DNA of 64,000 nt, from positions 51,550-115,549 of IMG/VR virus record IMGVR_UViG_3300020045_006153, one strand, 5' to 3'. Positions 7,701 through 51,556 of the stretch are shown one piece after another. Position 1 is the first letter of the stretch. Each line of letters starts with the position of its first letter. A program made the translations under genes and the position numbers. The notes beneath the pieces are model-generated. The model searched no databases. It was given only the letters and a program-made list of their open reading frames with translations, and was not told the DNA's origin. Source of the DNA: a virus. Its lineage: Duplodnaviria; Heunggongvirae; Uroviricota; Caudoviricetes.

Positions 7701-10022
7701 ATGACAAAAATAACAGTAATTAAACGAAGCGGAAATAAAGAACCATTAACCGTTGAAAAATGGCAAATGCAAATTGCAAAAGTTTGCAGTGGTATAGCAG
7801 ATGTTAGCCAATCAATGATTGAAATCAAGGCACAACCTCATTTCTATGACGGTATGACAACTAGGGAAATTGATAGCATTGCATTACGTGCAATGGTTGA
7901 TTTAATCGATGCCGAGTCTAATCCCGATGTAGGACATATTAACTATCAATACGTAGCAGGCAAGCAACGCCTGTCAATGCTACGCAAGGATGTGTATGGT
8001 ACATACGCAGTTCCTCACATTTACGAGATTGTAAAAAGAAACGTAGCAATCGGACTATATACGTCTGAATTGCTAGATTGGTATACAGAAGAAGATTGGA
8101 ATAAGATGGAAGCAATGCTCGATCATTCCAAAGACGAAGATTACTCCTATGCTGCAATTGAACAATTGATTGAAAAATATCTTGTGCGCAACCGCAGTAC
8201 AAAAGACATTTATGAAACTCCTCAAATTAGATACATGGTTGCAGCAGCAACAGTATTTCACAAAGAAGAACCCAATGCTGCACGTATGCGATTTATCAAA
8301 GAGTATTATAACGCTTCTTCAGACGGTCTCTTTACTCTTGCTACTCCTGTTCTTGCTGGGCTTGGTACTCCTACAAAACAGTTTAGTTCTTGTGTACTCA
8401 TTCGTTCGGACGATGATCTTGACTCCATATTTGCTTCTGGTGAAATGATGGCAAAGTATGCTAGCAAACGTGCTGGCATTGGTTTAGAAATTGGACGCTT
8501 GCGTTCATTAGGTGCACCTATTCGTGGTGGCGAAATCATGCACACAGGAATGATTCCATTCCTAAAGAAATGGTTCGGAGATTTGCGTTCTTGCTCACAA
8601 GGAGGTATTCGCAATGCTAGTGCTACTGTATTTTATCCAATTTGGCATCTGCAGTTTGATGATCTTATTGTTCTTAAAAACAATCAAGGAACCGAAGAAA
8701 CACGAGTACGCTTTATGGATTATGGCGTGGTACTTAGTTCCTTCTTTTGGAAACGCTTTAAAAACAAAGAAAACATAACATTCTTTGATCCAAATGAAGT
8801 ACCTGATCTATATCAAGCATTCTATAGTAATATCGAATTGTTTGAAGAGTTATACGTTAAGTATGAAAAACAAGACGGACTACGTAAAAAGACAATGTCT
8901 GCTGAAGAAGTATTTAAGAATGGCATTTTAAAAGAACGCACAGACACTGGTCGTATATATTTGGTATATGCAGATAACGTGCAACGCCAAGGTCCATTTG
9001 ATCCGAAATATCATACAATTTATCAAAGTAATCTTTGCTGTGAAATACTATTACCTACTAAGTCTTTTAAGCGCCTTGACGATGACACTGGTCGCATCGC
9101 TCTTTGCACTCTCGGTTCTATCAACTGGGGTGCATTTCGTAATCCAGAAGATATGCGCAGGGCTGCTCGCATTCTTCATCGTAGTCTCAATAATATTCTT
9201 GACTATCAAGACTTCCTAAGTATTCAATCTAAGTTGAGCAATGACGAAATTCGTCCACTCGGAATTGGCATTACAAATCTTGCTTACTGGCACGCAAAGC
9301 GCAGCCTTAAGTATGGAGAAGCAGATGCACTATCTGAAGTTAAAAGTTGGATGGAACATCAAGCATTCTACTTAACTGAAGCAAGTGTTGAACTTGCTAA
9401 AGAACGTGGTGCATGTGTTGATTCTGCTAAGACACGGTATGGTCAAGGAATATTTCCTTGGGAACTACGTGCCAATGGAGTAAACGAATTAACTGACTTT
9501 ACACCAGAACTAGATTGGGAACCATTGCGCAAGGATATGATCCAATATGGTGTACGCAATGCTACCAATATGGCAGTTGCTCCGGTTGAATCTTCCTCAG
9601 TTGTTATTACAAGTACAAACGGAATGGAAATGCCAATGAGTTTAATTTCTGTTAAAGAAAGCAAGGCTGGGTCACTTATTCAAGTAGTTCCTGAATACAA
9701 TCGACTAAAAAGCAAGTATCAATTAATGTGGGATCAAAAAGATTGCACGGGTTATTTGAAAACAGCAGCAGTAGTTGCAGCATATGTTGATCAATCGTTG
9801 AGTACAAATACGTTTTATAATCCTGCACATTATGCGGATCGCAAAGTTCCGATTACGTTAATTGCAAAGAATTTAATGCAAGCACATCATTGGGGATTGA
9901 AAACATTCTACTATAGTCTAATTAACAAGACAGGCAGCAAAGCAGATGTCGAAGAATTGCCGCCGTCCTTGCAACCAATTGACTTTGACGATCAAGAGGA
10001 TTGTTTGTCCTGTAAATTATGA
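7701..10022 (+). CDS. nrdA: ribonucleoside-diphosphate reductase large subunit (class Ia)
   Basis: N-terminal ATP-cone (VIKRSGNKEPLTVEKW), active-site NLCCEI, C-terminal Cys pair (CLSCKL), 773 aa. Confidence 0.9.
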   Translation: MTKITVIKRSGNKEPLTVEKWQMQIAKVCSGIADVSQSMIEIKAQPHFYDGMTTREIDSIALRAMVDLIDAESNPDVGHINYQYVAGKQRLSMLRKDVYGTYAVPHIYEIVKRNVAIGLYTSELLDWYTEEDWNKMEAMLDHSKDEDYSYAAIEQLIEKYLVRNRSTKDIYETPQIRYMVAAATVFHKEEPNAARMRFIKEYYNASSDGLFTLATPVLAGLGTPTKQFSSCVLIRSDDDLDSIFASGEMMAKYASKRAGIGLEIGRLRSLGAPIRGGEIMHTGMIPFLKKWFGDLRSCSQGGIRNASATVFYPIWHLQFDDLIVLKNNQGTEETRVRFMDYGVVLSSFFWKRFKNKENITFFDPNEVPDLYQAFYSNIELFEELYVKYEKQDGLRKKTMSAEEVFKNGILKERTDTGRIYLVYADNVQRQGPFDPKYHTIYQSNLCCEILLPTKSFKRLDDDTGRIALCTLGSINWGAFRNPEDMRRAARILHRSLNNILDYQDFLSIQSKLSNDEIRPLGIGITNLAYWHAKRSLKYGEADALSEVKSWMEHQAFYLTEASVELAKERGACVDSAKTRYGQGIFPWELRANGVNELTDFTPELDWEPLRKDMIQYGVRNATNMAVAPVESSSVVITSTNGMEMPMSLISVKESKAGSLIQVVPEYNRLKSKYQLMWDQKDCTGYLKTAAVVAAYVDQSLSTNTFYNPAHYADRKVPITLIAKNLMQAHHWGLKTFYYSLINKTGSKADVEELPPSLQPIDFDDQEDCLSCKL

Positions 10023-10306
10023 AAATTAAAACAATAGCAATTAGTATATTAGTGATCGTTGCAACATATATTGTTGCAATTAACCTTTATGATATGTATA
10101 CTATATACGAAGTACTAACACGGCCGGTACCTATGGCAGTAGTAAGTATCGGCGATCAACCGATAACAGGAATGAGCGCCACGGGATTTGGTATAAGTGC
10201 GAGCATTGAAAACGGTGACTCGTGGAGTACAGTTGCAAAATTAATAGCAACAATAATCGGCACATATCTTGGCATCAAACTTATTAACAAATATATTACA
10301 AAATGA
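10019..10306 (+). CDS. small membrane protein between nrdA and nrdB
   Basis: 95 aa, hydrophobic N- and C-terminal segments, overlaps both neighbours by 4 nt. Confidence 0.4.
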   Translation: MKIKTIAISILVIVATYIVAINLYDMYTIYEVLTRPVPMAVVSIGDQPITGMSATGFGISASIENGDSWSTVAKLIATIIGTYLGIKLINKYITK

Positions 10307-11406
10307 GCATCGAACAATACAATTTATCAACTAAGACAGATTACTTAAATCGCAAGATGTTTCTGGATCCAGCAGGCCCTGTTACTATCCAGCGTTTTGA
10401 AGAAGTAAAATACAACAAGATCGCAAAGTACGAAGAAACCGCTCGTGGATTTTTTTGGCAACCTGAAGAAATTTCACTCACTAAAGACGCCGGAGATTTT
10501 AAAGATGCTAGCGACGCAATTCGCCACATTTTTACAAGCAATTTACTTCGCCAAACAGCACTAGATTCGTTACAAGGGCGCGGTCCTCAACAAGTGTTTA
10601 CACCAGTTGTATCATTGCCGGAACTAGAAGCATTATGTTTTAATTGGGGATTTTTTGAATCAAATATTCATAGCAAATCATACAGCCACATTATTCGTAA
10701 TATCTATAATGTACCTAAGGATATTTTTAATTCTATCCACGATACACAAGAAATTATTAATATGGCGTCTACGATCGGTAATTACTATGACAAACTGCAT
10801 GTACTGAACTGTCGTAAAGAATGTGGTATAGAAGTGACTGAAAAGGAGCATATTAAGGCGATTTGGTTGGCATTACACGCCAGTTATGGCTTGGAAGCGT
10901 TCCGATTTATGGTTTCCTTTGCAACATCCTTAGCAATGGTAGAGAACAAAATCTTTATGGGAAATGGCAATATTATTAGCCTAATTCTGCAAGATGAATT
11001 GCTGCACAAAGAATGGACAGCATACATTATCAATCAAGTCGTTAAAGAAGATCCACGATTTGCAGCAATTAAAGAAGAATGTGCTGGTGAAGTTTACGCA
11101 ATGTATATGGATGTTATTCGTGAAGAAAAAGGATGGGCAGATTACTTGTTTATGAAGGGACCTGTTATTGGCTTAAATGCTGCTATTCTAAAAGAATTTT
11201 TAGATTTTACAGCAGCAGATGCATTAAAGCAAATTGGTATTAAGTATCTCACTATTTCTCCTAAGAGCACACCTATTCCTTGGTTTAACAAGCATATGAA
11301 TACATCAAATAAACAAACAGCATTACAAGAATCCGAGTCGACGAGTTATGTCATCGGAGTAATGTCATCGGAACTAGATTACGATGCATTGCCAGAATTA
11401 AAATAA
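10303..11406 (+). CDS. nrdB: ribonucleoside-diphosphate reductase small subunit (class Ia)
   Basis: Ferritin-like diiron motifs (ExxH pairs), 367 aa, directly follows nrdA. Confidence 0.85.
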   Translation: MSIEQYNLSTKTDYLNRKMFLDPAGPVTIQRFEEVKYNKIAKYEETARGFFWQPEEISLTKDAGDFKDASDAIRHIFTSNLLRQTALDSLQGRGPQQVFTPVVSLPELEALCFNWGFFESNIHSKSYSHIIRNIYNVPKDIFNSIHDTQEIINMASTIGNYYDKLHVLNCRKECGIEVTEKEHIKAIWLALHASYGLEAFRFMVSFATSLAMVENKIFMGNGNIISLILQDELLHKEWTAYIINQVVKEDPRFAAIKEECAGEVYAMYMDVIREEKGWADYLFMKGPVIGLNAAILKEFLDFTAADALKQIGIKYLTISPKSTPIPWFNKHMNTSNKQTALQESESTSYVIGVMSSELDYDALPELK

Positions 11407-14346: not shown

Positions 14347-14371
14347 ATAAAATATCGTTGTAATTCCTTTG

Positions 14372-14418
14372 AAATGAAGGCAGGCAAGACGCGGGTTCAA
14401 CTCCCGCCAGGTCCACCA
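14372..14418 (+). ncRNA. ssrA: tmRNA acceptor piece (T-arm + 3' acceptor strand + ACCA) of a permuted two-piece ssrA
   Basis: AAGACGCGGGTTCAACTCCCGCCAGGTCCACCA is near-identical to the E. coli SsrA 3' end GGACGCGGGUUCAACUCCCGCCAGCUCCACCA. Confidence 0.6.
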
Positions 14419-14619
14419 TAAAGAAATTAATGCGTAACTTTAAAGTATTATCTGTAGAAGAATCCCCAGGAGGCCAGGGTCCTGACCGAGCTTAGAAGAT
14501 TCATTACACGGCTTATGTTAATAAGCAATGGAAAACAGATGTGCTTTGGCAGATAGCACGAAACGCAAATCAAGCCCGCGAAAGAGCAATGGCAAGATTT
14601 GGTAAAGTTTCTTTATGAT

Positions 14620-14778
14620 GGGCCTGATCTGGCATTCGATTGCGTGAGATAGTAGAGACGGCAACGCGACACAGATAGTCGTAAAAAGTAAACAAAAACA
14701 ACCGCAAACGATTCAGTTTACGCATTAGCGGCCTAACAGCCGCTTAGGGTAGTTATACCTAGTAACAGAAACTAACAA
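14620..14778 (+). ncRNA. ssrA: tmRNA coding piece (5' acceptor strand GGGCCTG, D-analog, tag reading frame 14704..14736 encoding ANDSVYALAA-stop)
   Basis: GGGCCTGATCTGGCATTCGA resembles the E. coli GGGGCUGAUUCUGGAUUCGA. Acceptor pairs with CAGGTCC of the upstream piece, including a G3-U wobble and a compensatory C4-G change. Tag GCAAACGATTCAGTTTACGCATTAGCGGCCTAA. Confidence 0.6.
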
Positions 14779-16146: not shown

Positions 16147-16198
16147 TTGACATTAGTAGTAATACTGATATATAATAGTGTATGACAAACAGTTGTCA
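16147..16198 (+). promoter_or_regulatory. sigma70 consensus promoter TTGACA-18-TATAAT followed by perfect palindrome TGACAAACAGTTGTCA
   Basis: -35 at 16147-16152, -10 at 16171-16176, inverted repeat at 16183-16198 upstream of the OMP-like gene. Confidence 0.5.
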
Positions 16199-16214
16199 TT
16201 AAACTTAAAGGAAA

Positions 16215-16685
16215 TTGAAAATGAAGAAGTTCGTAATTATGGCAGTTTTGGCCGCAGCAGCAATGGCAGCAAGTGCAACAGAAATCGGTACTCGTTACTC
16301 CAGCGGCTTTGCTGCAAGTGGTGACAAGCAAGGCGAAAGTACCGGAGTGGTTGTTAATCAAGCAGCAGTTGTCGGTGGAGTTGGTGCAGAACTATCGTTC
16401 GATCGCTCTGCAACTGGTCCGACTACTGTCGATCGTTACACTGCTTTGGCTACATATGACGTTGCTAAGGTATTCGGTGCTACAGTAACTGCTAAGGCAG
16501 GTGGAGCATATGTTCAGCCAACTAGCAGTACAGACGGTTATGCACTTGTTGCAGGTGTAGGAGTTTCCTACCCAATCTATAAGACTGTTAGCCTTGTAGC
16601 GGATTACTCCTATCAACTTGGTCAAGATCGTATTCAGCATCTTGACGGTAACAAAGTAAGCGTGGGCGTTAAGTTCGGATTCTAA
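16215..16685 (+). CDS. outer-membrane beta-barrel-like protein (OmpW/OmpA-like small OMP) with signal peptide
   Basis: MKKFVIMAVLAAAAMAASA signal peptide, alternating amphipathic strands, C-terminal GVKFGF (terminal Phe). Confidence 0.5.
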   Translation: MKMKKFVIMAVLAAAAMAASATEIGTRYSSGFAASGDKQGESTGVVVNQAAVVGGVGAELSFDRSATGPTTVDRYTALATYDVAKVFGATVTAKAGGAYVQPTSSTDGYALVAGVGVSYPIYKTVSLVADYSYQLGQDRIQHLDGNKVSVGVKFGF

Positions 16686-24350: not shown

Positions 24351-24881
24351 ATGGCAAAGGCTTTAATGGTAGACTTGGAAACTCTTGCAGTTTCCCCAGA
24401 CGCAGTTGTGCTCTCGTTAGGCGCAGTGCATTTTAACCCTTGGGGTAACGGATACGGTGATAAACTATCGTTTCGTATTAACATCGACGATCAAGACTTG
24501 CTGGGACGCGAAGTTGATCCTAATACAGTTGAATGGTGGTCGAAGCAAGATCCAGTAGTAATGGAAGAAGCATTTAGCCCAGATGACCGTATTCCGTTGG
24601 AAGAAGCAATGGAAAAGTTTCACAAGTTTGCTTGGGGATGCGATACATTCTGGGCACACGGTGCAACGTTTGACTTAGTAATATTGGAAAATATTATGAA
24701 GCAACTTAAAAGGCCATTTCCTTGGTCGTATTGGCAACTACGTGACACACGCACGTTATTTGATCTAGGATACGACCCCGATATGCCCAAAGGTGGGTTA
24801 CACGATGCATTGCAAGATGCAATCCGACAAGCAGTAGGTGTGCAGAACATTTATGCTAAAATGAAAATTCGACCAAAATAA
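24351..24881 (+). CDS. DEDDh 3'-5' exonuclease (DnaQ/RNase T-like)
   Basis: Exo I DLETL, Exo III HDALQDA, 176 aa. Confidence 0.7.
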   Translation: MAKALMVDLETLAVSPDAVVLSLGAVHFNPWGNGYGDKLSFRINIDDQDLLGREVDPNTVEWWSKQDPVVMEEAFSPDDRIPLEEAMEKFHKFAWGCDTFWAHGATFDLVILENIMKQLKRPFPWSYWQLRDTRTLFDLGYDPDMPKGGLHDALQDAIRQAVGVQNIYAKMKIRPK

Positions 24882-25117: not shown

Positions 25118-25125
25118 TGGTAACA

Positions 25126-25151
25126 CTGCCTCTTTACAAGGGGCAGTTTTT
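25126..25151. terminator. intrinsic terminator (CTGCCTC-tttacaa-GGGGCAG + TTTT)
   Basis: 7-bp stem including G-U, then T-run. Confidence 0.5.
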
Positions 25152-25198
25152 CATGTATAATAAATACATGCAGCAAAGAGATAGACTTTTTGCACATA
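25133..25198 (+). promoter_or_regulatory. promoter TTTACA-17-TATAAT plus conserved leader hairpin GCAAAGAG-ataga-CTTTTTGC (copy 1)
   Basis: Same 45-nt element (TATAATAAATACATGCAGCRAAGAGATAGACTTTTYGCACAT) recurs at 35755-35797 with a compensatory A-T to G-C change in the stem. Confidence 0.55.
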
Positions 25199-25217
25199 AT
25201 TTACTTAGGATTTAAGT

Positions 25218-25484
25218 ATGACAAACAAATTTCAAACCCGAATTAAAGAACTGTTTCCTGAAAATGGAGTAATGTGTTTAACGGAAAGTAGTACACCAGA
25301 AGGTGTTGCGTATTACTATTCCGAAGAACAAGTTCAACGCCTTGCAGCATTGATTGTCAAAGAATGCATTGCTATCATCGATGATGTGTACGAACAAGCC
25401 GAGCCAGATCATGGATGCCACGACCGGGCTACATGGGCAACTAGTGACGACATCAAGTATATGTTTGGAGTGCAAGATGAATAA
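25218..25484 (+). CDS. hypothetical protein (first gene of the NadM transcription unit)
   Basis: 88 aa, ATGA overlap with nadM. Confidence 0.4.
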   Translation: MTNKFQTRIKELFPENGVMCLTESSTPEGVAYYYSEEQVQRLAALIVKECIAIIDDVYEQAEPDHGCHDRATWATSDDIKYMFGVQDE

Positions 25485-26505
25485 AAAATACGATACCCTT
25501 GTTCTAATTGGCCGGTTTCAACCAGTGCATAGTGCACACGTAGAAATTATTCAGCGCGCAGTTTCGCTAACAAAAGATCTAATTATTATTGTTGGATCGG
25601 CTGATCAACCTCGAACTTATAAGAATCCGTGGTCTTACAAAGAACGTGCAATGATGTTGAATAACGTGCTAGAGACAATTAATGTTGGCACAACTCGTGT
25701 TCACATCGAATCAAACGTTGATACAATTTATAACGATACTGCTTGGGTACGTCGAGTACAAGGTATTGTTTCTAAGTACAGGTGTCTCGGTGGACGCACT
25801 GGAATTATTGGTCACAAGAAAGACGAAAGTTCGTTCTATCTGGAAATGTTCCCTCAATGGGAATTCGAAAATGTAGATTTGATTCAACCGTTAAATGCTA
25901 GTAACGTGCGAGATCTGTATTTCCGTGAAGATGCAAATATGAATTTCTTGCGCTCTGTGATTCCGCAATCAACTTATCGCATGTTGGAAGGATGGTTTCA
26001 ATCGCCGGATCGTGCGCAAGTGATCAAAGAACGCGAGTTTGTTGCAAAATACAAAAAGCAATACGAATCACTGCCTTATCCTCCGATCTTTGTGACTGCA
26101 GATGCACTAGTTATTCAAAGCGGACACATTTTAATGGTGAAACGGCGTGCCGAACCCGGTAAAGGGTTGTGGGCTCTTCCTGGAGGATACGTAAATGCAT
26201 ATACTGATAAAAGTGTCGAGGATGCAATGATTCGAGAACTAAGAGAAGAAACTGGTATCAAAGTTCCGGCGCCTGTATTGCGTGGTAGCATTGTAGATCG
26301 CAAAGTGTTTGATGCAGTTGATCGCAGCCCTCGTGGCCGTATTATTACGCACACACATAAAATTGTATTGCCCGATGGTCCTTTAATTAAAGTAAAAGGA
26401 GCAGATGATGCTGAAAAAGCAGCAATGCGAGCAATCGCAGATATTCGAAGCGACGAATGCTTCGAAGATCATTATGAAATGGTACAATGGGGAGTAGGAG
26501 CATAA
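25477..26505 (+). CDS. nadM: bifunctional NMN adenylyltransferase / ADP-ribose pyrophosphatase (NadM-Nudix)
   Basis: N-terminal LVLIGRFQPVHSAH (H/TxGH nucleotidyltransferase motif) and C-terminal Nudix box GGYVNAYTDKSVEDAMIRELREETGI. ORF track starts at 25354, but ATG 25477 directly follows the upstream stop. Confidence 0.8.
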   Translation: MNKKYDTLVLIGRFQPVHSAHVEIIQRAVSLTKDLIIIVGSADQPRTYKNPWSYKERAMMLNNVLETINVGTTRVHIESNVDTIYNDTAWVRRVQGIVSKYRCLGGRTGIIGHKKDESSFYLEMFPQWEFENVDLIQPLNASNVRDLYFREDANMNFLRSVIPQSTYRMLEGWFQSPDRAQVIKEREFVAKYKKQYESLPYPPIFVTADALVIQSGHILMVKRRAEPGKGLWALPGGYVNAYTDKSVEDAMIRELREETGIKVPAPVLRGSIVDRKVFDAVDRSPRGRIITHTHKIVLPDGPLIKVKGADDAEKAAMRAIADIRSDECFEDHYEMVQWGVGA

Positions 26506-28855: not shown

Positions 28856-29084
28856 TCCTCGAGTTAAAGAATTGATTTTTAGTGCTGCGCAATTTGCAGT
28901 AGATCATACTAGCAATAACGCCTCTGCGTATGAAGGTGTATTTTTGAGCAAGTATACAGATCTCATCATTGAAGAATGTTGTGAAGCACTGTGGACTGAA
29001 GAATGTCACACAAGTGACGTTGCATATATTGAATGGCTTGCGCAATGCAGCAAAATTAAAGACTCGTTAGGAGTATTGGCATGA
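28848..29084 (+). CDS. hypothetical protein
   Basis: 78-aa ORF. Confidence 0.4.
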   Translation: MANPRVKELIFSAAQFAVDHTSNNASAYEGVFLSKYTDLIIEECCEALWTEECHTSDVAYIEWLAQCSKIKDSLGVLA

Positions 29085-29680
29085 ATATAGTTGAACTAAT
29101 TTGGGGTGGATTGCTACAAACTACTCCGTTGGAATTATGGGCCAACGGCATGACCGCTGTCTGTATCTTCCTTGCAGGCCGCAATAACATCCACACTTGG
29201 TGGACAGGCATCGTTGCTTGTGTATTGTTTGGTTGGTTATTCTTTGGTGCTAACCTGTATGCTGATGTAACACTACAAGCGTTCTTTGTTGTTACTGGAG
29301 TGATTGGCTGGTACAATTGGGTTAAGAAAACCAATAATGTAGAAACGCCGGTTTCATATGCAAGTGGCCATCAAGTTGCGCGAATGGTCGCAATTGCAAT
29401 CGGAACAGCAATCGGATACGGATGGTTGCTGCATACTTTCACTAATGCATTCGCACCGTGGATTGATAGTACTGTACTCACGTTTAGTATTATTGCGCAA
29501 CTGTTGCTAATGACTCGCAAGGTGCAAAACTGGCCAATCTGGGTACTCGTTAACACGCTAAGTGTGCCGTTGTACTGGAGTCGAGAACTATATGTAACAT
29601 CTGCGCTGTACGCAGTATTTTGGGTAAATGCAATGTGGTCGTGGAAGACTTGGATTAATCTTGCTAAAGAAGAAAAATGA
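29081..29680 (+). CDS. pnuC: nicotinamide riboside transporter PnuC-like membrane protein
   Basis: 199 aa, 6-7 TM segments, Trp-rich (WxxN-type) motifs typical of PnuC. Sits inside the NAD cluster. Confidence 0.65.
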   Translation: MNIVELIWGGLLQTTPLELWANGMTAVCIFLAGRNNIHTWWTGIVACVLFGWLFFGANLYADVTLQAFFVVTGVIGWYNWVKKTNNVETPVSYASGHQVARMVAIAIGTAIGYGWLLHTFTNAFAPWIDSTVLTFSIIAQLLLMTRKVQNWPIWVLVNTLSVPLYWSRELYVTSALYAVFWVNAMWSWKTWINLAKEEK

Positions 29681-32575: not shown

Positions 32576-33577
32576 ATGAAATATGCAACTGGATTAGTAG
32601 TGGGTAAATTTTGTCCTCTGCACAAGGGACACGAATTGCTAATCAGCACTGCACTAAGCCAGTGCAATCGTGTTGTTATTCTTTCTTACACTTCACAAGA
32701 ATTTGAAGGTTACGAAGTTGAAAAAAGAGAACAATGGATTAAACTCATGTACCCTAAAGCAATTGTAAAGGTATTATCTCCACATGAAGTACCAGATGAT
32801 GATGCGCCTGCAGAATTTCATCGACTATTTTGTGCCGATCATCTCCTTAATGTAATGAATACTACTGTACAGGCAGTGTTCACTTCAGAAGATTACGGAG
32901 ACGGCTTTGCAGAATATCTCAGCAAATACTTTTCAGAAAATCTTAGCACAGAAATCACAGTAGATCACGTGCTTGTAGATAAAGAAAGGATACAGTTTCC
33001 AGTGTCGGGTACTTATATTAGAGAATCAATTGCAAATGGCAATATTCCTGTTACATTACATCCGTATGTGTTTAGGGATTTTGTTAAACGTGTTGCGTTT
33101 TTGGGCGGAGAATCATCGGGCAAAACAACGCTAACAACAGCATTAGGTCGCCGAACAAACATACAATGGGTATTAGAATACGGCCGTGAATTGTACGACG
33201 ATCGTACTGGCAAGTTAAATTACGAAGACATGGAGTTTATAGCCAAGACGCAGATAGGCAGAGAAAATCGGAGCAGGCAAGAACAATATATGTTTTGTGA
33301 TACTACTCCATTGACTACAAAATTCTATAGTGAGCAACTGTTTAACCGTGTCTCTCCCGCACTAGAAAAAATGTCGCAACGCGAGTACTACAAAATTTAT
33401 TTGTGTTCTCCGGACATTAATTTTGAGCAGGACGGCACAAGGCGTGATTCTACATTTAGAACGGTAGGACACAATTGGTATGTTAAGTACTTGACAGCAC
33501 ACAATATACCGTATACAATAGTACAAGGTTCTCTAGAAGAACGCATTGATTTTGTTATGAAAGATTTAGGATTATGA
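32576..33577 (+). CDS. nadR: NadR-like bifunctional NMN adenylyltransferase / ribosylnicotinamide kinase (no HTH domain)
   Basis: N-terminal VVGKFCPLHKGHE nucleotidyltransferase motif and central Walker A GGESSGKTT of the RNK domain, 333 aa. Confidence 0.7.
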   Translation: MKYATGLVVGKFCPLHKGHELLISTALSQCNRVVILSYTSQEFEGYEVEKREQWIKLMYPKAIVKVLSPHEVPDDDAPAEFHRLFCADHLLNVMNTTVQAVFTSEDYGDGFAEYLSKYFSENLSTEITVDHVLVDKERIQFPVSGTYIRESIANGNIPVTLHPYVFRDFVKRVAFLGGESSGKTTLTTALGRRTNIQWVLEYGRELYDDRTGKLNYEDMEFIAKTQIGRENRSRQEQYMFCDTTPLTTKFYSEQLFNRVSPALEKMSQREYYKIYLCSPDINFEQDGTRRDSTFRTVGHNWYVKYLTAHNIPYTIVQGSLEERIDFVMKDLGL

Positions 33578-34857: not shown

Positions 34858-35102
34858 TGAACGTTTATTATGAATATGCCCCTGCTGTGACTGCGAGTTT
34901 AGGCATTACCCACTTGTATTGGGCAAGATATAATGTCGATGACGGTTACACTGTAGATTTTACCTCTATGCGATTTTCTAATCGAGTTTGGGTAGAGGAC
35001 GAATTCAAGATCAAATATATCAAATACCGATGGGATTCGCCAGCACCGGCAGTAGACCTAAAAGAATTCATGTGGGTTAAGTTACGGAGCAAAGAATTAT
35101 GA
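34848..35102 (+). CDS. hypothetical protein
   Basis: 84-aa ORF. Confidence 0.4.
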   Translation: MDMMNVYYEYAPAVTASLGITHLYWARYNVDDGYTVDFTSMRFSNRVWVEDEFKIKYIKYRWDSPAPAVDLKEFMWVKLRSKEL

Positions 35103-35494
35103 AAATCGGAATTACAGGTACGCGGCGTGGTATAACTGATTATCAACGCGACGAAATTACTAAACTACTCAACGAATTGTATTCAGTAAACTCGGAATTG
35201 CATCACGGCGATTGCGTAGGAGCAGACGCCACTGTTGCAGATATTGCAAATGAGTTAGGTTACATTATTGTATGTCATCCTCCTACTAAAGACTCTCTTA
35301 GAGCGTTTCGCAGAGCAGATCAAATACGTATACCTACATCGTATTTTTCCCGTAATAGGAATATTGTGAATGACACTGATGTATTACTAGTAGTGCCTTT
35401 TCAAACGTCACCTCAATCAACTGGTGGTACCTGGTATACATATGATTATGCCCTAAAGGTAGGCAAGCCCGTACACATCATTTATCCAAAGTAA
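35099..35494 (+). CDS. Rossmann-like nucleotide-processing protein (SLOG/DprA-like fold, tentative)
   Basis: GITGTRRG ... HHGDCVGAD motif pattern, 131 aa. Confidence 0.3.
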   Translation: MKIGITGTRRGITDYQRDEITKLLNELYSVNSELHHGDCVGADATVADIANELGYIIVCHPPTKDSLRAFRRADQIRIPTSYFSRNRNIVNDTDVLLVVPFQTSPQSTGGTWYTYDYALKVGKPVHIIYPK

Positions 35495-35496
35495 TT

Positions 35497-35739
35497 ATGG
35501 AAGTTATTGTATCTTGTGGCAACGGTGGCGATTGGGAATGGTATAACGACCAGTACTTGTGGCAATTGTGGATTGAACAAAATATAACAACTGAGTTCAA
35601 CACCGGCTCAGGAATTCATGTTAAGGCAGACGAACTTGCAGTGCGTTTTAAAAATCCATCTCACGCAACAATTTTTACTTTAAAGAGGCCAATGTGGATT
35701 ACGCATCACGATGTTATATTACCAAAACCAGTTGACTAA
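35497..35739 (+). CDS. hypothetical protein
   Basis: 80-aa ORF. Confidence 0.4.
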   Translation: MEVIVSCGNGGDWEWYNDQYLWQLWIEQNITTEFNTGSGIHVKADELAVRFKNPSHATIFTLKRPMWITHHDVILPKPVD

Positions 35740-35797
35740 CAATAGTTAATGTAGTATAATAAATACATGCAGCGAAGAGATAGACTTTTCGCACATT
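35732..35797 (+). promoter_or_regulatory. promoter TTGACT-17-TATAAT plus conserved leader hairpin GCGAAGAG-ataga-CTTTTCGC (copy 2)
   Basis: Second copy of the 45-nt leader element seen at 25156-25198; precedes nadV. Confidence 0.55.
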
Positions 35798-35815
35798 TAT
35801 ATAAAGGATTTTTAT

Positions 35816-37276
35816 ATGTCAAAACTTAATAGCATTATAACCGATACCGATTCTTACAAGGTATCAATGTGGAAACAATACCCAGCAGGAACAGAATATG
35901 TCTATTCTTACATCGAATCCCGTGGTGGCAAATATGATCGAACAGAATTTCTCGGGGTACAGGCTCTCGCAAAGTATCTTGCGACACCGATTACGCAAGA
36001 ACAAATTGATTATGCAGAGAAAATTTGGACTCTGCACGGAGAGCCGTTCAACCGCGAAGGTTGGCAATACATCCTTGATCAACATGAAGGCAAGTTACCT
36101 TTGCGGATTCGCGCAGCCAAGGAAGGCCTTATCATTCCGACTAAAAACGTCCTCTGCACAATCGAAAATACTGATCCAAACTGCTTCTGGCTCACAACTT
36201 GGGTGGAAACAGCGGCGCTACGTGCAATCTGGTATCCTACCACTGTCGGAACTACTTCGTGGCATATTAAGCAAGAAATTCTAAACTACCTGGAGAAGTC
36301 TGGTGACCCTACTACTATTGCTTTCAAGCTTCACGACTTTGGCGCTCGCGGTGTTTCTTCTGGAGAAAGCGCAGGGATCGGTGGTGCAGCGCACCTGGTT
36401 AACTTCATGGGCACCGACACTATTTCTGGTGTCCTCTATGCCATGGATGTATATGGTGGTGACGTTTGTGGATACAGTATCCCAGCCGCAGAACACAGCA
36501 CCATCACAAGTTGGGGTCGTGCACACGAAGTAGACGCTTACCGCAATATGGTCAAGCAGTTCGGCAAGCCTGGCGCTATCCTTGCTGTGGTTAGCGACTC
36601 ATACGATATTTACAAAGCCTGTGAAATGTGGGGAACGGAACTAAAAAATGATGTTATCAATTCTGGCGCAACTGTTGTTATCCGCCCTGACTCTGGCGAC
36701 CCTGTGGTGGTTGTGCCTAAAATGCTCAGAATCCTTTCTGAAAAGTTTGGGTATACCACCAACGCAAAAGGATATAAGGTACTTAATAACGTTCGCGTCA
36801 TTTGGGGCGACGGTATTAACAGTGTTAGCTTATCCAGTATTCTTCGCTGTGTAGTTGATGTAGCAGGATACTCTACAGACAATATTGCATTTGGTATGGG
36901 CGGCGGATTGTTGCAACAATGTGACCGTGATACACTGCAATTTGCTATGAAGTGTTCTTCGATTGGTATTCGTGAAGTTCCTGCAACATACGATCCAACT
37001 GCACAAGAAGAAAACACTGACGGTTCTGTGCTTGTATGGCGTGATGTATTCAAAGACCCTAGTACCGACCCCGGCAAGGCTTCTAAGAAGGGTCGTGTGA
37101 CATTGTGGACAAACGGTGCGCCACAAGGTACTGAATACGAAACCGCAGTCGACTGTCCTACACGCTGGACTGACAAAGGATTTGCTTGGAATGATGCAAT
37201 GGAAACGTATTTTGAAGACGGTGAAGTAAAGTTCACACAACCCTTTGAAGAAGTACGGACTAACAGCAATCTATGA
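35816..37276 (+). CDS. nadV: nicotinamide phosphoribosyltransferase (Nampt/NadV)
   Basis: 486 aa, characteristic type-II PRTase length and motifs (GTDTISG-like region, FGMGGGLLQ). Confidence 0.85.
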   Translation: MSKLNSIITDTDSYKVSMWKQYPAGTEYVYSYIESRGGKYDRTEFLGVQALAKYLATPITQEQIDYAEKIWTLHGEPFNREGWQYILDQHEGKLPLRIRAAKEGLIIPTKNVLCTIENTDPNCFWLTTWVETAALRAIWYPTTVGTTSWHIKQEILNYLEKSGDPTTIAFKLHDFGARGVSSGESAGIGGAAHLVNFMGTDTISGVLYAMDVYGGDVCGYSIPAAEHSTITSWGRAHEVDAYRNMVKQFGKPGAILAVVSDSYDIYKACEMWGTELKNDVINSGATVVIRPDSGDPVVVVPKMLRILSEKFGYTTNAKGYKVLNNVRVIWGDGINSVSLSSILRCVVDVAGYSTDNIAFGMGGGLLQQCDRDTLQFAMKCSSIGIREVPATYDPTAQEENTDGSVLVWRDVFKDPSTDPGKASKKGRVTLWTNGAPQGTEYETAVDCPTRWTDKGFAWNDAMETYFEDGEVKFTQPFEEVRTNSNL

Positions 37277-37746
37277 TTGAAATTAAATCCCCTGCTAAAC
37301 TAGAGTGGGATATTTTTAACGGTGCAATCTTTCTGGGAGGCTCAATTGAAATGGGTCTCGCAGAAGATTGGCAACCGAAACTTATTGCAGAACTTGCTAA
37401 TTACGAAATTGCAGTGTTGAATCCCCGTAGGGATAATTGGGATCCAACATGGGTGCAATCAATTAAGAATCCAAAGTTTAAAGAACAAGTACAATGGGAA
37501 CTTAGTGCAATTGATCATGCAAACATTGTTGTATTCTATTTTGATCCTGACACCAAATCACCTATTACCTTAATGGAACTAGGATTGTGTGCAGGACAAG
37601 GTAGTAAAACTATTGTATGCTGCCCCGACGGTTACTGGAGAAAAGGTAACGTAGAAATTCTATGTGAGATGTACAATATTAAATTAGTTGAAACATTTAA
37701 CGATTTTGTAACAGAGATTAAATTAGCACTGCTAGTCATTTACTAA
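37273..37746 (+). CDS. nucleoside 2-deoxyribosyltransferase-like protein
   Basis: IFLGGSIEMG and ITLMELGLCAG motifs in a roughly 157-aa flavodoxin-like protein. Confidence 0.45.
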   Translation: MIEIKSPAKLEWDIFNGAIFLGGSIEMGLAEDWQPKLIAELANYEIAVLNPRRDNWDPTWVQSIKNPKFKEQVQWELSAIDHANIVVFYFDPDTKSPITLMELGLCAGQGSKTIVCCPDGYWRKGNVEILCEMYNIKLVETFNDFVTEIKLALLVIY

Positions 37747-38712: not shown

Positions 38713-39768
38713 ATGTCTTATTTTATCAAAAGCGGAAATACTTACAAAGTATCGTCTGAAGAAGCAGTTGATCTACACCACACACTACCCGCAGGTAATT
38801 ACATTATCAAAGTAGATATGTTCGGAGGAATGTTTCTTGAACACATCGACAACTTCGAATTCAAGAGCAAACGCTACGGCGATAATATTAAGAATACCGA
38901 TCGTATCATGAACACATTTAAGTCTCGTGATATGAGCACTGGTATTATGCTTGCTGGAGAAAAAGGCTCTGGAAAATCTCTTCTTGCAAAAAGTCTATCA
39001 ATGGCAGCATACGAAGAAGGTATGCCCACTATTGTTATTAATTCGCCCTATAAAGGTGATAATTTCAACAAATTGATTCAAGACATTAGCCAACCGTGTG
39101 TTGTGTTGTTTGATGAATTTGAAAAAGTGTATGACAAAGACGATCAAGAAGAAATTCTTACTCTGCTTGATGGTGTGTTCCCCTCAAAGAAACTGTTTAT
39201 CCTTACTTGTAACGACAAATGGCGTATCGATTCGCACATGCGTAATCGCCCAGGCCGTATCTATTACATGATCGACTTTAAGGGACTTAGCGCAGAGTTC
39301 ATTACTGAATATTGCAAAGACAACTTGAATGACAAGTCGCACATCGACAAAATTTGTTCCATTGCTTCGTTGTTCTCAGAGTTTAACTTTGACATGCTTA
39401 AAGCGTTAGTTGAAGAAATGAATCGTTACAACGAGTCCCCACAAGAATCTCTGAAAATGCTTAACGCTAAACCAGAATTCGACGGCGGTAGCAAATACGA
39501 TGTTACCTTCGAACTCAACGGTGTTACGCAAGATACGAGCGTTTATGAGCCAGTGACGTTCAATGGTAATCCGCTAAACGGAACGCTGCATCTTGAATAC
39601 TCTACTGGAATTGATGAAAACATCGAATGGATTAACGAAAAACTTACTCAAGAAGACTTAGTTAAAATTATGCCCACACAAGGTGTGTTTGAATTTGCTA
39701 AAGGCAGCGGAATTAAAGTTAGACTAACTAAGTTAAAAGAAAAAGTATTCAACTTCGATGCTTTTTAA
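38713..39768 (+). CDS. AAA+ family ATPase
   Basis: Walker A GEKGSGKS, Walker B VVLFDEFE, 351 aa. Confidence 0.55.
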   Translation: MSYFIKSGNTYKVSSEEAVDLHHTLPAGNYIIKVDMFGGMFLEHIDNFEFKSKRYGDNIKNTDRIMNTFKSRDMSTGIMLAGEKGSGKSLLAKSLSMAAYEEGMPTIVINSPYKGDNFNKLIQDISQPCVVLFDEFEKVYDKDDQEEILTLLDGVFPSKKLFILTCNDKWRIDSHMRNRPGRIYYMIDFKGLSAEFITEYCKDNLNDKSHIDKICSIASLFSEFNFDMLKALVEEMNRYNESPQESLKMLNAKPEFDGGSKYDVTFELNGVTQDTSVYEPVTFNGNPLNGTLHLEYSTGIDENIEWINEKLTQEDLVKIMPTQGVFEFAKGSGIKVRLTKLKEKVFNFDAF

Positions 39769-41318: not shown

Positions 41319-43517
41319 ATGATTATTAATAGCACTCCTACAAATGAAGCAGTTCTGTCTAACGTCGGGCAAATTGGTGAATTTAAAATCCGAAATTCTG
41401 CTAAAGCATTTAGCATTCTGAGTTCGGGATTGTACGCTAACAAAATCCGCGCTATTATTCGAGAACTATCTTGCAATGCAGTAGATAGTCACGTTGCAGC
41501 AGGCAAAGTAGATACGCCATTCGGTGTACATTTGCCCAATGCATTAGATCCGTGGTTTTCAATTCGTGATTTCGGAACAGGTCTTAACAACGATCAGATT
41601 ATCAATATCTACACTACCTATTTCGAATCTACTAAAACTGGCTCCAACGATTTTATCGGCGCCTTGGGTCTAGGTTCTAAGTCCCCATTCTCGTACACAG
41701 ATAACTTCACAGTTACTGCGGTTAAGGATGGCACTAAACGAATTTATACTGCATTCATTAATGAAATGGGTGTGCCATCTATTGCACTAATGACTGAAAG
41801 TGATACTGATGAACAAAACGGTGTCGAAGTTAAGTTCGCAGTTAACGATCGATATGACTTTCCTAAGTTTCAACAAGAGGCCGCTGACGTATATACGCAT
41901 TTTAAACTGCGTCCTGTGATTGCAGGTGCCCACGGTTTCCGATTTATCGATCGTGAATACAGCGATGTAAACATTGTTCCCGGTGTTAGTTCCTATAAGA
42001 ACACAGGATATTACAATATGTCTAGCGTTGCATTGATGGGCAACATTGCGTATCCTATCAATGTACCTAATGCAGAGCAAAACTTGGGAGACTTAGCAGG
42101 GCTATTGAACTGCGGTCTTGAAATTCAATTTAATATCGGCGACCTCGATTTTCAAGCATCGAGAGAAGGCCTTAGTTATATTCCACAAACAATTGCTGCT
42201 ATCAAGAAAAAACTTGAAGAGTTGAATGCACAACTATCGATTCGTCTTGCAGCAGATGCCGATGCAATTCAAAACAAATGGGATCGTGCACTATTCTTGC
42301 TTTCGAAGAAAGATGTTCAATTGTGGAGTGCGTCAGTATCTAAGTATCTCACAGATACACAATTTTCGCTAGTTACACGGGATAATTACGGCATTCGTGC
42401 TAAGGTTTTTAAACTAAGTGCTAACATGCTTGCTAACGATTTTAATATTGCAATGAACGGATTCGATAAGAATCGTGGTTATAATAGTACAGTCCATATT
42501 ATTCGGGCAGGACCAGTGCATGAAAAACGTGCAGACGGCACCGGATATGATATTGTCGATAATGAATGGACGATTACTGTTAGTAAAGATCAATACTTTA
42601 TTGAAAATGATTTAAAAATCGGTGCGATTGAACGTGCAAAATATAACTGGCGCACCGCTCGTAATTCACAGAATAGTTACACAGATTATGTATATATATT
42701 GTCTAAGGCTGATAAGGCCAAGGACATGGACGTTGCAGGATTTTTGAAACTGTTGGAAATGCCGCCAGAAAATCAAGCAATGCTTGCATCGTCATTGACA
42801 GAAAAGCCAAAGATAGCAAAAGCCTCGGGCAAAAATGTTACGATATTGCGTCTTGAGGAAAAGACCACAGGATGGGGTCGTAAAACCGGTGATAGTGTTT
42901 GGAAGGACGCAGGCAAGGCAAGTACGTTTGATAGTAGTGTTACATACTATTATTTGCCGCTAAGTGGTTACTCATTTACTCCATCTATTGCAACTGGCAT
43001 TGACTCTCCCGGCGCATTTTATCATACGTTATCGTTCAGTTCTATTCCTAGTTTGCATAACATTAAAGTTTATGGGGTGCGTAAAACTGACATTGAATTT
43101 ATTAAGACTCAAAAGAATTGGATAAATCTCGAAGAACATGTAGTTTCTGTTCTCAATAAACTCGATGACACATTTATTGTTAGTGTGGCAAGACACGAGG
43201 TTGACAAGTATAGTTTTATCAAGTATAATAATGTTGTAAGTCAAGTAGATAAGAACAGCCCATTTAGTACCCTTGTAAAAAAATTCAGTGGTATTAAAAA
43301 AAGCGACACTTCACTTGCTTCTTTGAAGAATCTTACCACACGTTACGCAATTGATGTAGGTGTTAAGGCAGAGAAGGTTATTAAGGAATTTGCGAATGAA
43401 TGTGGGGCCGTTCGCAATCGGTATCCGTTGCTAGATTGCCTCCGTGATTACAATGTACCTGACAGTGCATTGGCAGAGTATATTAATTTAATTGACGCAA
43501 AGAAAGAAGGAATTTAA
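41319..43517 (+). CDS. GHKL (Bergerat-fold) ATPase-like protein
   Basis: N-box ELSCNAVDSH, G1 box IRDFGTGL, G2 box GALGLGSKS in the N-terminal 130 aa; 732 aa. Confidence 0.4.
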   Translation: MIINSTPTNEAVLSNVGQIGEFKIRNSAKAFSILSSGLYANKIRAIIRELSCNAVDSHVAAGKVDTPFGVHLPNALDPWFSIRDFGTGLNNDQIINIYTTYFESTKTGSNDFIGALGLGSKSPFSYTDNFTVTAVKDGTKRIYTAFINEMGVPSIALMTESDTDEQNGVEVKFAVNDRYDFPKFQQEAADVYTHFKLRPVIAGAHGFRFIDREYSDVNIVPGVSSYKNTGYYNMSSVALMGNIAYPINVPNAEQNLGDLAGLLNCGLEIQFNIGDLDFQASREGLSYIPQTIAAIKKKLEELNAQLSIRLAADADAIQNKWDRALFLLSKKDVQLWSASVSKYLTDTQFSLVTRDNYGIRAKVFKLSANMLANDFNIAMNGFDKNRGYNSTVHIIRAGPVHEKRADGTGYDIVDNEWTITVSKDQYFIENDLKIGAIERAKYNWRTARNSQNSYTDYVYILSKADKAKDMDVAGFLKLLEMPPENQAMLASSLTEKPKIAKASGKNVTILRLEEKTTGWGRKTGDSVWKDAGKASTFDSSVTYYYLPLSGYSFTPSIATGIDSPGAFYHTLSFSSIPSLHNIKVYGVRKTDIEFIKTQKNWINLEEHVVSVLNKLDDTFIVSVARHEVDKYSFIKYNNVVSQVDKNSPFSTLVKKFSGIKKSDTSLASLKNLTTRYAIDVGVKAEKVIKEFANECGAVRNRYPLLDCLRDYNVPDSALAEYINLIDAKKEGI

Positions 43518-43519
43518 AA

Positions 43520-44596
43520 ATGACAAGTTACCCATATATTATTCAAGGTTCAAATATTGTTGTTGTTATCAACAATCAAACCCATACAGTATCTAAGTCT
43601 CATATGACTTATAACACTGTACTCGAAGCAATTAAAGCAGGAGATTGGGATAAAGTAAAAGAATCAATCGAACCCAAGAAAGCAATTATTGCGTACGGTA
43701 AGGGCAACCTCTCTGTACAAGACGGAGAAGTGTACTGGAAGGGAGAAGTGTTTTCTAGTTATCAAACCGGAAAGATGGTTGAAATGCTAGAAAGCGGGTT
43801 CTCTATTGAACCACTTGCAAACTTTACTGAGAATGTGATGAAGAATCCATCTCGTCGTGCAGTGTATGAACTGTATCCTTTTCTAGAAAAAGGCGGAATG
43901 CCTATTACACCTGATGGTCACTTCCTTGCTTACAAGAAAGTCAACGATAACTATTTCGATGTTCACTCTCGTACTGTGCTTAATAAGCCATACGGTTTGA
44001 TGGTTGATAACGATCTCAAATGGATTGCAGAAGGAAGTGCTGGCAAGAAGAAAGAAGTTACTGTTTCTATCGAAAATGGCGTTACTGTTGTTAGCATGGA
44101 ACGTAATGAAGTAAATGATGACAAGGATCAAACTTGTTCTGAAGGCCTGCACTTTTGCTCTAAAGAGTATCTACGTAGTTTCGGTGGAGACCGTACTGTG
44201 ATCCTTAAGATCAATCCAGCAGATGTTGTGAGCATTCCAAGTGACTATAACAATAGTAAAGGACGCACTTGCCGATACGAAGTTATCGGTGAGTTGAATG
44301 AGGAAACTGTACTTTCCCCAGAAAAGGCATTTACTGCGCCTGTGCAAGATAATGCATACGGTATTAAGGAATCGATTAACAAATTGACTCCGTGGCCTTT
44401 TGCAAAGGCAACAGTTGCTCCTGTAGTTACTCGTCAATCTGCCGCTAGCAATGCTGCACAAGAATACGACAAGAAAGGCAATCCACTGTCTATGACAAAA
44501 GATGCAATTCGTAAGCGTAAGGCGCGGGCTGCTAAGAATAGTGTGACGCCTACACCATTTTATGCAAATGCGTGGCCTACGCCTAAAGGCTTTTAA
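43520..44596 (+). CDS. hypothetical protein (partner of the GHKL-like gene)
   Basis: 358 aa, 3-nt gap from the upstream gene. Confidence 0.45.
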   Translation: MTSYPYIIQGSNIVVVINNQTHTVSKSHMTYNTVLEAIKAGDWDKVKESIEPKKAIIAYGKGNLSVQDGEVYWKGEVFSSYQTGKMVEMLESGFSIEPLANFTENVMKNPSRRAVYELYPFLEKGGMPITPDGHFLAYKKVNDNYFDVHSRTVLNKPYGLMVDNDLKWIAEGSAGKKKEVTVSIENGVTVVSMERNEVNDDKDQTCSEGLHFCSKEYLRSFGGDRTVILKINPADVVSIPSDYNNSKGRTCRYEVIGELNEETVLSPEKAFTAPVQDNAYGIKESINKLTPWPFAKATVAPVVTRQSAASNAAQEYDKKGNPLSMTKDAIRKRKARAAKNSVTPTPFYANAWPTPKGF

Positions 44597-51526: not shown

Positions 51527-51556
51527 TTACTTGACGCAGAATGCAAAGTAGTGTAT
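51527..51556 (+). promoter_or_regulatory. promoter TTGACG-17-TATAAT
   Basis: Upstream of 51659. Confidence 0.4.

Follow-up and report, generated by a model that had tools for sequence, protein, structure and literature searches.

Leader hairpins and translational operators are well-known kinds of regulatory element. In phages, the operator of the T4 gene 43 DNA polymerase and the coat-protein operators of MS2 and PP7 are translational operators bound by the product of the gene. NadV and NadM constitute the nicotinamide adenine dinucleotide (NAD+) reconstitution pathway NARP2, with which phages rebuild NAD+ and defeat NAD-depleting immunity (Thoeris, DSR, and SIR2-type systems). NARP2 drains phosphoribosyl pyrophosphate (PRPP) and ATP and is metabolically costly via its use of PRPP (10.1101/2024.02.11.579819). 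In bacteria, the nadM-nadV and prs-nadV operons are targets of NrtR, whose site is a 21-bp palindrome with the core GT-N7-AC; the NadR box is the 18-bp sequence TGTTTA-N6-TAAACA (PMC2330246). In the literature surveyed here, whose coverage is incomplete, no description of how phages regulate NARP2 was found. Here we analysed 64,000 nt of a virus of the Caudoviricetes (IMG/VR record IMGVR_UViG_3300020045_006153, positions 51,550 to 115,549; hereafter, the window), in which a two-hairpin leader precedes both NAD-salvage transcription units, one leading into nadM and the other into nadV. Comparison with relatives makes it near certain that this leader is a selected RNA structure specific to genes of the nadV and nadM units.

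Two leaders of the same architecture in the window

The 42-nt string TATAATAAATACATGCAGC(A/G)AAGAGATAGACTTTT(T/C)GCACAT occurs at 25156-25197 and 35755-35796, both on the plus strand, and no further match with three or fewer mismatches was present in the 64-kb window (0 expected from shuffles). The initial annotation had reported the same two copies with ends at 25198 and 35797; the copies stand, but these ends are one base too long, and that base differs between the copies. As had also been proposed, each copy begins at the -10 box of a good promoter (sigma70-type, 11/12). The copies differ only at A25175/G35774 and T25191/C35790, which are partner positions in the hairpin GC(A/G)AAGAG-ATAGA-CTTTT(T/C)GC (H1). 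The compensatory change noted earlier is thus real: an A-U pair of the 8-bp stem is swapped for G-C and pairing is kept. We estimate at about 0.3% the probability of two random substitutions among 42 nt falling on one pair and restoring it. The eight pairs include a G.U wobble (G25178.U25188), and the helix is therefore perfect only as RNA and mismatched as DNA.

Downstream of H1 lies a second hairpin (H2), absent from the initial annotation, which carries the Shine-Dalgarno (SD) sequence in its loop. Both leaders were folded as H1 plus H2 in the minimum free energy structure (-11.1 and -12.5 kcal/mol, z of about -2.7). The H2 arms are wholly different between the two copies and pair in both. 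A scan of the 64 kb for hairpins with an SD in a pentaloop and an ATG at the stem end returned exactly two, both at these leaders. The parts of the two leaders and the units behind them are as follows.

25133..25161, plus strand: promoter 1, sigma70-type, TTTACA-17-TATAAT (11/12), with a start at about A25168 predicted from spacing
25173..25193, plus strand: H1 of copy 1, GCAAAGAG / AUAGA loop (25181-25185) / CUUUUUGC, 8 pairs; covariance-model match 25169-25223, 53.8 bits
25194..25201, plus strand: linker of copy 1, G-free (ACAUAAUU), joining H1 to H2
25202..25218, plus strand: H2 of copy 1, UACUUA / GGAUU loop (SD, 25208-25212) / UAAGUA, the last A being the A of the start codon (25218-25220)
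25218..26505, plus strand: regulated unit 1, an 88-aa open reading frame (ORF) of unknown function (25218-25484) that overlaps nadM by 8 nt, and nadM (nicotinamide mononucleotide adenylyltransferase [NMNAT] plus Nudix) at 25477-26505
35732..35760, plus strand: promoter 2, sigma70-type, TTGACT-17-TATAAT (11/12), its -35 box overlapping the stop codon of the upstream ORF
35772..35792, plus strand: H1 of copy 2, GCGAAGAG / AUAGA loop (35780-35784) / CUUUUCGC; covariance-model match 35768-35821, 60.6 bits
35798..35818, plus strand: H2 of copy 2, UAUAUAAA / GGAUU loop (SD, 35806-35810) / UUUAUAUG, with the whole AUG (35816-35818) in the 3' arm
35816..37276, plus strand: regulated unit 2, nadV (nicotinamide phosphoribosyltransferase [NAMPT] type, 486 aa)

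Covariation of both hairpins across relatives

No close isolate relative was found by megablast (best isolate NadV match, 57% identical; RIIA, at most 31%), and IMG/VR contains many contigs with NadV 60-91% identical. Searching with the leader by blastn gave chance matches only, and an exact-sequence scan of viral contigs gave nothing; the motif is therefore defined by structure and not by sequence. Relatives have the same architecture before nadV and before nadM, in the latter case sometimes with a small ORF between the leader and nadM. Their H1 arms are all different yet compensating (CCUAGAG/CUUUAGG, CCCGAUG/CAUUGGG, GUAGGAG/CUUCUAC, and GGAGCGAA/UUCGCUCU). Across the aligned instances, the arms take any sequence and the H1 top, G-AUAGA-C, is invariant; the pentaloop stays so down to 45% identity of the downstream protein. 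Synechococcus phage B23 has A-U instead of G-C as the closing pair, which indicates that this pair is real and that the loop is the pentaloop AUAGA.

Covariation was measured in a gap-free alignment of 75 non-identical instances, in which H1 had been filtered partly on sequence and structure and H2 had never been picked on pairing. For H1, 84% of the cells were paired (54% in shuffled alignments), 147 cells were double substitutions (49 shuffled), and the covariation score was 0.70, compared with 0.18 for shuffles and 0.10-0.16 for register-shifted controls; 0 of 500 shuffles reached the real score. For H2, 91% of the cells were paired compared with 60% in shuffles, with 117 double changes compared with 37.5 and a score of 0.715 compared with 0.146. 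H1 contained 29 G.U pairs and 11 A.C mismatches and was recovered independently by RNAalifold. In a filter-free test, GATAGAC in the 100 nt before the start of nadV or nadM had 5.5 of 7 flanking positions paired (n = 62), compared with 3.4 of 7 for GATAGAC elsewhere in the same loci (n = 49), where the well-paired exceptions were nearly all leader copies before small ORFs. Selection on pairing, first proposed from one compensatory change, is now backed by more than 100 double substitutions in relatives.

The order of parts is the same throughout the family: H1, a short linker, H2 with the top A-GGANN-U, and the AUG. The linker has 4-12 nt, is A/U-rich, and contains only 1-4% G. In all instances, GGA stands in the H2 loop as A-GGA-NN-U; H2 is A/U-rich, and its 3' arm ends at the AUG or includes it. 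Mean stabilities were -7.8 +/- 2.8 kcal/mol for H1 and -3.5 +/- 1.3 kcal/mol for H2, which is thus weak with a narrow spread. A sigma70-like promoter ends 12-30 nt before the loop in 100 of the 171 unique instances (mode, 16 nt), and therefore H1 lies within a few nucleotides of the predicted 5' end of these transcripts. Three loci (L019, L044, and L079) have the leader between nadM and nadV without a promoter, the 5' arm of H1 containing the nadM stop codon. Its function cannot, therefore, depend solely on a 5'-terminal position.

Distribution and gene specificity

A covariance model was built from the leader alignment. On the window with filters off, it found only the two known copies, and the next match scored 13 bits. 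In 85 NadV/NadM-anchored loci, there were 120 matches, all on the sense strand, preceding NadV (66), NadM (35), or, as in the window, a small ORF with nadM close behind it (21). A gene-blind scan of viral contigs with a pattern of loop and SD gave 80 loci with 80 model matches, which precede NadV (40), NadM (21), small ORFs (18), and a radical-SAM gene (1). In the 18 small-ORF cases, nadM is downstream wherever the locus reaches far enough. Overall, more than 200 instances were obtained from uncultured viral contigs and cultured phages. A search for further copies, which the initial annotation had called for, thus yielded no third copy in the window and many in relatives, nearly all before the nadV or nadM unit.

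The sole copy not before such a unit (L143, 1575-1628) precedes a gene for a 314-aa radical-SAM protein. Radical-SAM genes adjoin nadV in KVP40.

Among cultured phages, the motif precedes both nadV and nadM in Rhodobacter phage RcXuper, with GC-rich stems and the same loop, and in Synechococcus phage B23, and it precedes nadM in Xanthomonas phage RTH11; it was not found in the isolate phages KVP40, ACP17, Mx1, and VspSw_1. The element thus spans phages of alpha- and gammaproteobacteria and cyanobacteria. When 185,579 bacterial and archaeal genomes were scanned with a strict pattern, 77 matches were returned, near the estimated chance level. The real loci were four, all in phage-like contigs of metagenome-assembled genomes carrying nadM or nadV; the two whose neighbours were screened also carry homing or HNH endonuclease or exonuclease genes. 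We read the four as phage DNA in bins, and the same scan found no instance in isolate bacterial chromosomes.

A generic duplicated promoter was considered and rejected. The window has about 25 promoter-like sites, of which some 20 are strong; what they have in common is limited to TATAAT and a few A/T-rich bases, and among the strong ones the hairpin is found at the two NAD-salvage promoters only. The claim of a specific cis element on both units is upheld.

The slot between the leader and nadM is filled by small ORFs of several unrelated families in different phages, none with a Pfam match. Examples are a 118-aa family beginning MSKATTFTIKK, a 108-aa family with HTDGCGW, and families of 124 and 155 aa (L098 5181, L158 1433 on the minus strand, L138 2711, L060 905, and similar loci). 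In the window it holds the 88-aa ORF, which likewise has no Pfam match. The slot looks like an insertion hotspot under the control of the leader.

The NAD toolkit of the phage is wider than the initial annotation listed, and these other NAD-related genes of the window are without the leader motif. They are pnuC (29081-29680; NMN_transporter, E 6.5e-45), a gene for a 333-aa protein with a NadR-type AAA_28 kinase domain (32576-33577; E 2.4e-29), and a nucleoside 2-deoxyribosyltransferase-like gene (37273-37746) that follows nadV with overlapping stop and start codons. The ORF two genes before nadV (35099-35494) has weak, sub-threshold matches to SLOG families (YAcAr, cpYpsA, and DprA; E about 0.005-0.009), a superfamily linked to nucleotide-derived ligands.

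Loop variants and NadM classes

In the loci that were negative with the model, NadM is of a different class (about 324 aa and about 34% identical). The loop G-GUAGU-C or G-GCAGU-C is found in eleven of them, in a leader of the same two-hairpin architecture with covarying arms.

About 60-90 nt upstream of nadM: leaders of the GUAGU/GCAGU type in L030, L033, L039, L040, L047, L055, L056, L059, L064, L066, and L068

In these genomes, nadV has the SD hairpin only. The core (U/C)AG is common to both loop classes. These comparisons indicate that the H1 loop is class-specific. Other loops have 8 nt (L046) or 12 nt (Ralstonia phage RsoM2USA), and H1 is absent altogether from L004, L005, L007, L009, L012, and L013. 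The internal loop of H1 is not conserved: relatives have 1x1 to 3x3 loops there, and in the window all positions pair.

Compared with relatives, the nadV leader of the window is of the type usual on the nadM unit (AAAUACAU.CAGC..). On this basis, the near-identity of the two copies is read as the result of intragenomic copying of promoter and H1 followed by the compensatory change.

Comparison with described regulatory elements

Rfam at gathering thresholds returned only a permuted tmRNA, a Polynucleobacter-1 RNA, and a tRNA from the window. No Rfam 15 family, including NAD+-I and NAD+-II, came near its gathering threshold with the window leaders (E<=10) or with those of relatives (E<=5). DUF2815 RNA (RF03084) was rejected: its match of 13.4 bits (E 4.2; threshold 41.2 bits) is driven by ..UAGAC plus SD/AUG, and the architecture differs. 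An intrinsic terminator or attenuator was also rejected, as copy 2 barely passed a lenient scan (5 T in 8), copy 1 failed it, and the 3' flank in the family is A-rich.

CsrA/RsmA targets contain at least two GGA motifs, one of them in a hairpin loop over the SD. H2 does present GGA in the loop of an SD hairpin, and no second GGA was found upstream, since the AUAGA loop is without GGA and the linker is nearly free of G. In the window, an ATG at the predicted +1 (25168 and 35767) opens frames of 15 codons (25168-25215) and 20 codons (35767-35829) through H1. A leaderless upstream ORF was rejected as a conserved feature, given that relatives read ATA or ATC at that site and nadV-type leaders are without it.

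The PeSL cassette of T4-type phages is reportedly a stem-loop followed by an early promoter (Arbiol et al. 2010). It was ruled out for H1, which is downstream of the -10 box. The following hairpin, which overlaps the -35 box of promoter 1, is PeSL-like.

25125..25147, plus strand: terminator-like hairpin ACTGCCTC-TTTACAA-GGGGCAGT with a T run, which ends the upstream unit and shares sequence with the -35 box of promoter 1 (10 pairs, 5 GC, T-rich tail)

Possible functions of the leader

Our tentative preference, held with a little less than even confidence, is that the leader is a translational operator that couples expression of the two NAD-salvage enzymes and is read by a co-evolving protein, possibly encoded in the NAD module. 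The leader has a specific loop on a free stem beside the SD and AUG, which is the pattern of a protein-bound translational operator. The invariant loop, the sequence-free stem, and the fixed short distance to H2 give H1 the anatomy of a docking site for a trans-acting factor. A protein is favoured over a metabolite because the loop tracks the NadM class, the internal loop of H1 is unconserved, and no meaningful pseudoknot or alternative fold was found. The element is found in phages of different host phyla, its only constant partners are nadV and nadM, and the small ORFs are unrelated to each other; the enzymes of the module are therefore the simplest candidates.

In the proposed mechanism, H2 would be a poised gate, whose 5-nt SD loop could pair with the anti-SD only if the stem opens, with the AUG in or at the stem. 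A putative trans-acting factor would recognise the H1 loop and, bound beside H2, would lock or mask the weak SD/AUG hairpin and lower initiation. NAMPT and NMNAT/Nudix would then be made together and only as needed. The factor would most likely be a phage protein that co-evolves with the module; speculatively, it might be NadM or NadV itself, giving an autogenous feedback that would limit the drain of PRPP and ATP by NARP2. H1 at the 5' end probably also protects the mRNA from 5'-end-dependent decay. This second role cannot be general, because 42% of the instances show no sigma70-like promoter.

Several points weigh against the protein-read operator. Those promoterless instances are one of them. 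NadM and NadV are of ordinary length and domain content with no extra RNA-binding domain, and a preliminary comparison of motif-positive and motif-negative NadM, in which an RNA-binding extension was sought, also gave ordinary lengths. The tracking of NadM class by loop class could be simple co-inheritance of adjacent DNA. An SD shown in a loop could enhance initiation instead of inhibiting it, and repression in preference to activation is a guess. Some close relatives (L004, L005, and L013; NadV 78-82% identical) are without H1, so the element is dispensable. Lastly, the H1 covariation figures from the 75 instances are inflated by the pairing filter; H2 and the filter-free GATAGAC test are unaffected.

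Unlikely in our judgement is a phage-specific RNA sensor of the NAD+ state, either a new riboswitch class or an RNA-enzyme feedback, that switches on the NARP2 enzymes when needed. The signal would be NAD+, or the ADP-ribose or nicotinamide freed by NAD-depleting defence systems. If true, this would be the first known case of a regulatory RNA in control of a phage anti-defence pathway.

As a riboswitch in the strict sense, the leader would itself bind NAD+, nicotinamide mononucleotide (NMN), ADP-ribose, nicotinamide, or PRPP and thereby alter SD/AUG accessibility. The exclusive tie to two enzymes of one pathway and the fixed geometry beside the SD are in line with this, and the spread over phages of unrelated host phyla would imply a universal effector. 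NARP2 is costly, and NAD-depleting defences release ADP-ribose and nicotinamide (10.1101/2024.02.11.579819). However, the conserved information is confined to the pentaloop and its closing pair, the internal loop of H1 varies, and the loop changes with NadM class (AUAGA versus GUAGU/GCAGU), which is unusual for one ligand. No pseudoknot or alternative fold meaningfully exceeded shuffled controls: loop versus downstream sequence gave -3.5 kcal/mol (-3.7 shuffled), and an SD-sequestering duplex of the 5' arm gave -3.6 kcal/mol, barely different from -2.9 in shuffles. With the lack of any match to NAD+-I, NAD+-II, or another Rfam riboswitch, direct ligand binding appears unlikely.

A constitutive leader with no dedicated regulator is a little less probable still. 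H1 would act as a 5' stabiliser and H2 with the A/U-rich linker as a ribosome-loading site, and conservation of the loop would reflect either folding or an interaction with universal machinery, for example the ribosome, S1, or an RNase. The promoter 12-30 nt before the loop in 100 of 171 instances, with H1 near the predicted start, and the nearly G-free, A/U-rich linker agree with such a role. Universal machinery would account for the spread across host phyla, and another early leader of the window (about 16184-16203) also has a 5' hairpin and then an SD. On the other hand, a generic enhancer would be expected on other genes, and the element is confined to nadV and the nadM unit and is kept in the promoterless nadM-nadV spacers of L019, L044, and L079. 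Folding alone hardly accounts for a pentaloop that stays invariant when the downstream protein has diverged to 45% identity, and class-specific loops argue against one universal partner.

A kissing interaction of the H1 loop with a trans RNA (a small RNA of phage or host, or a tRNA anticodon loop, for instance) is, in our view, very unlikely. The invariant (U/C)AG core in both loop classes is compatible with an RNA partner. The window has a tRNA with anticodon CUA (46762-46835; tRNA-Pyl by ARAGORN, Rfam tRNA 61.9 bits) behind a strong promoter (12/12, at 46693, just upstream), and this anticodon could pair with UAGA. There is also a 15-nt exact copy of the H1 3' half (GATAGACTTTTTGCA) at 38985-38999 on the minus strand, antisense within the Walker-A coding sequence (GSGKSLLAKSLS) of an AAA ATPase gene (38713-39768). 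However, loop pairing would be limited to 4-5 nt, no CUA-anticodon tRNA is annotated in the B23 stretch around its NAD genes, and no partner RNA was conserved in the loci examined. The complementarity of the anticodon to the UAG of the loop is probably a coincidence, and the 15-nt match, which falls in Walker-A coding, was judged to be chance or coding constraint.

The DNA operator suggested by the initial annotation, in which the dyad is bound as double-stranded DNA by an NAD-responsive host or phage repressor of the NrtR/NadR type, is hardly credible: H1 DNA is indeed 21 bp and dyad-symmetric like an NrtR site, lies just downstream of the -10 box in the window, and stands before genes whose bacterial counterparts are NrtR-controlled (PMC2330246), but its stem contains G.T pairs, every one of the 200 model matches is on the coding strand with a constant spacing to the SD, and it also occurs without a nearby promoter. 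A dimeric operator would keep its half-sites; the 75 instances show the opposite, with arms that change in compensating fashion around an unvarying, non-palindromic centre, ATAGA. The comparison with known motifs was likewise negative, as the centre of H1 is G-ATAGA-C (G-N5-C) with no GT-N7-AC core, and the element has no NadR box. With up to three mismatches, the NadR box had 76 matches in the window (87.5 expected) and none at the two promoters except a chance three-mismatch match inside H2 and the nadV start. A Nudix domain was found only in NadM among the window ORFs scanned, in a screen for Nudix plus winged helix-turn-helix proteins that was not exhaustive. The occurrence across alphaproteobacterial, gammaproteobacterial, and cyanobacterial phages disfavours a host-specific repressor. 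The other option raised at the outset, an RNA leader, is borne out by strand specificity, the fixed distance from the SD, and the covarying arms.

Other features of the window

The tRNA(CUA) is of the amber suppressor type and hints at possible stop-codon recoding or suppression in the phage. A permuted two-piece tmRNA lies at 14356-14736 (RF04321, 106.9 bits; tag ANDSVYALAA) with a 12/12 promoter upstream at 14117. The Polynucleobacter-1 RNA (RF01718) at 53543-53688 scored 96.7 bits against a gathering threshold of 37 and may hint at a freshwater betaproteobacterial host. The region 16147-16225 has a strong early promoter with a 5' hairpin (GACAAacagTTGTC) and an SD behind it, a general layout like that of the NAD leaders without an AUAGA loop or SD hairpin (13-bit model match). 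Further genes encode rIIA/rIIB (41319-44596), NrdA/NrdB (7701-11406), an Rv2179c-like 3'-5' exoribonuclease (24351-24881), and a DUF2828/DUF7788 protein (51659-53056), the last corresponding to phrog_850, 'RNA-binding protein'.

Significance

A literature search, of incomplete coverage, for a nadV/NAMPT riboswitch, structured RNA, hairpin, or GAUAGAC, which included the NARP2 paper, gave nothing relevant. There thus appears to be no earlier description of the leader family, of its two-hairpin design, or of its confinement to NAD-reconstitution genes of phages. The family is a well-supported addition to the short list of phage-specific cis-regulatory RNAs. Its conservation from cyanophages to Rhodobacter and Xanthomonas phages, on two genes only, implies active and coordinate control of counter-defence. 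The leader offers a 55-nt handle for finding the sensor, whether protein or metabolite, and a compact, portable translational control module for engineering.

Relation to known systems

Among DNA sites, the NrtR/NadR operators control nadV/nadM-type salvage genes, and the 21-bp NrtR dyad has the length of H1 (PMC2330246). They are, however, DNA sites with conserved half-sites, whereas here the half-sites vary, the centre is conserved, and the element is strand-specific and tied to the SD. The NAD+ riboswitches of class I (nadA motif) and class II (pnuC motif) are likewise cis leaders before NAD-metabolism genes, and class II acts on the SD. Those riboswitches are bacterial and larger, with conserved internal loops or a pseudoknot; the present element is restricted to phages and conserved only in its pentaloop.

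The T7 gene 10 leader also consists of a 5' hairpin, an A/U-rich unstructured stretch, and an SD, and many nadV-type linkers read UUAACUUUA. Unlike that general device for high expression, the present leader is gene-specific and has an invariant loop and a second hairpin around SD and AUG. In function, an analogy is offered by the eukaryotic iron-responsive element and its iron regulatory protein, in which a small hairpin with a conserved loop occurs in several leaders of the same pathway and is read by a metabolite-sensing enzyme homologue, so that the mRNAs are controlled together. The loop there is CAGUGN with a bulged C, and binding by an enzyme is only putative here.

Lambda boxB of the nut sites is a promoter-proximal hairpin with a 5-nt loop that is read by a phage protein and has covarying stems and class-specific loops. 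Its loops are GNRA-like (GAAAA/GACAA), and it acts with boxA in transcription antitermination, whereas the fixed short distance to an SD hairpin and the occurrence inside operons point to translation for the present leader. The leader resembles the T4 gp43, MS2, and PP7 operators in its hairpin, which joins a specific loop to a free stem, lies just 5' of the SD and AUG or encloses them, and has a loop that varies among related phages with the cognate protein. The present leader differs from them in having two hairpins, in serving two transcription units of metabolic enzymes, in occurring in many unrelated large phages, and in that its binder is putative.

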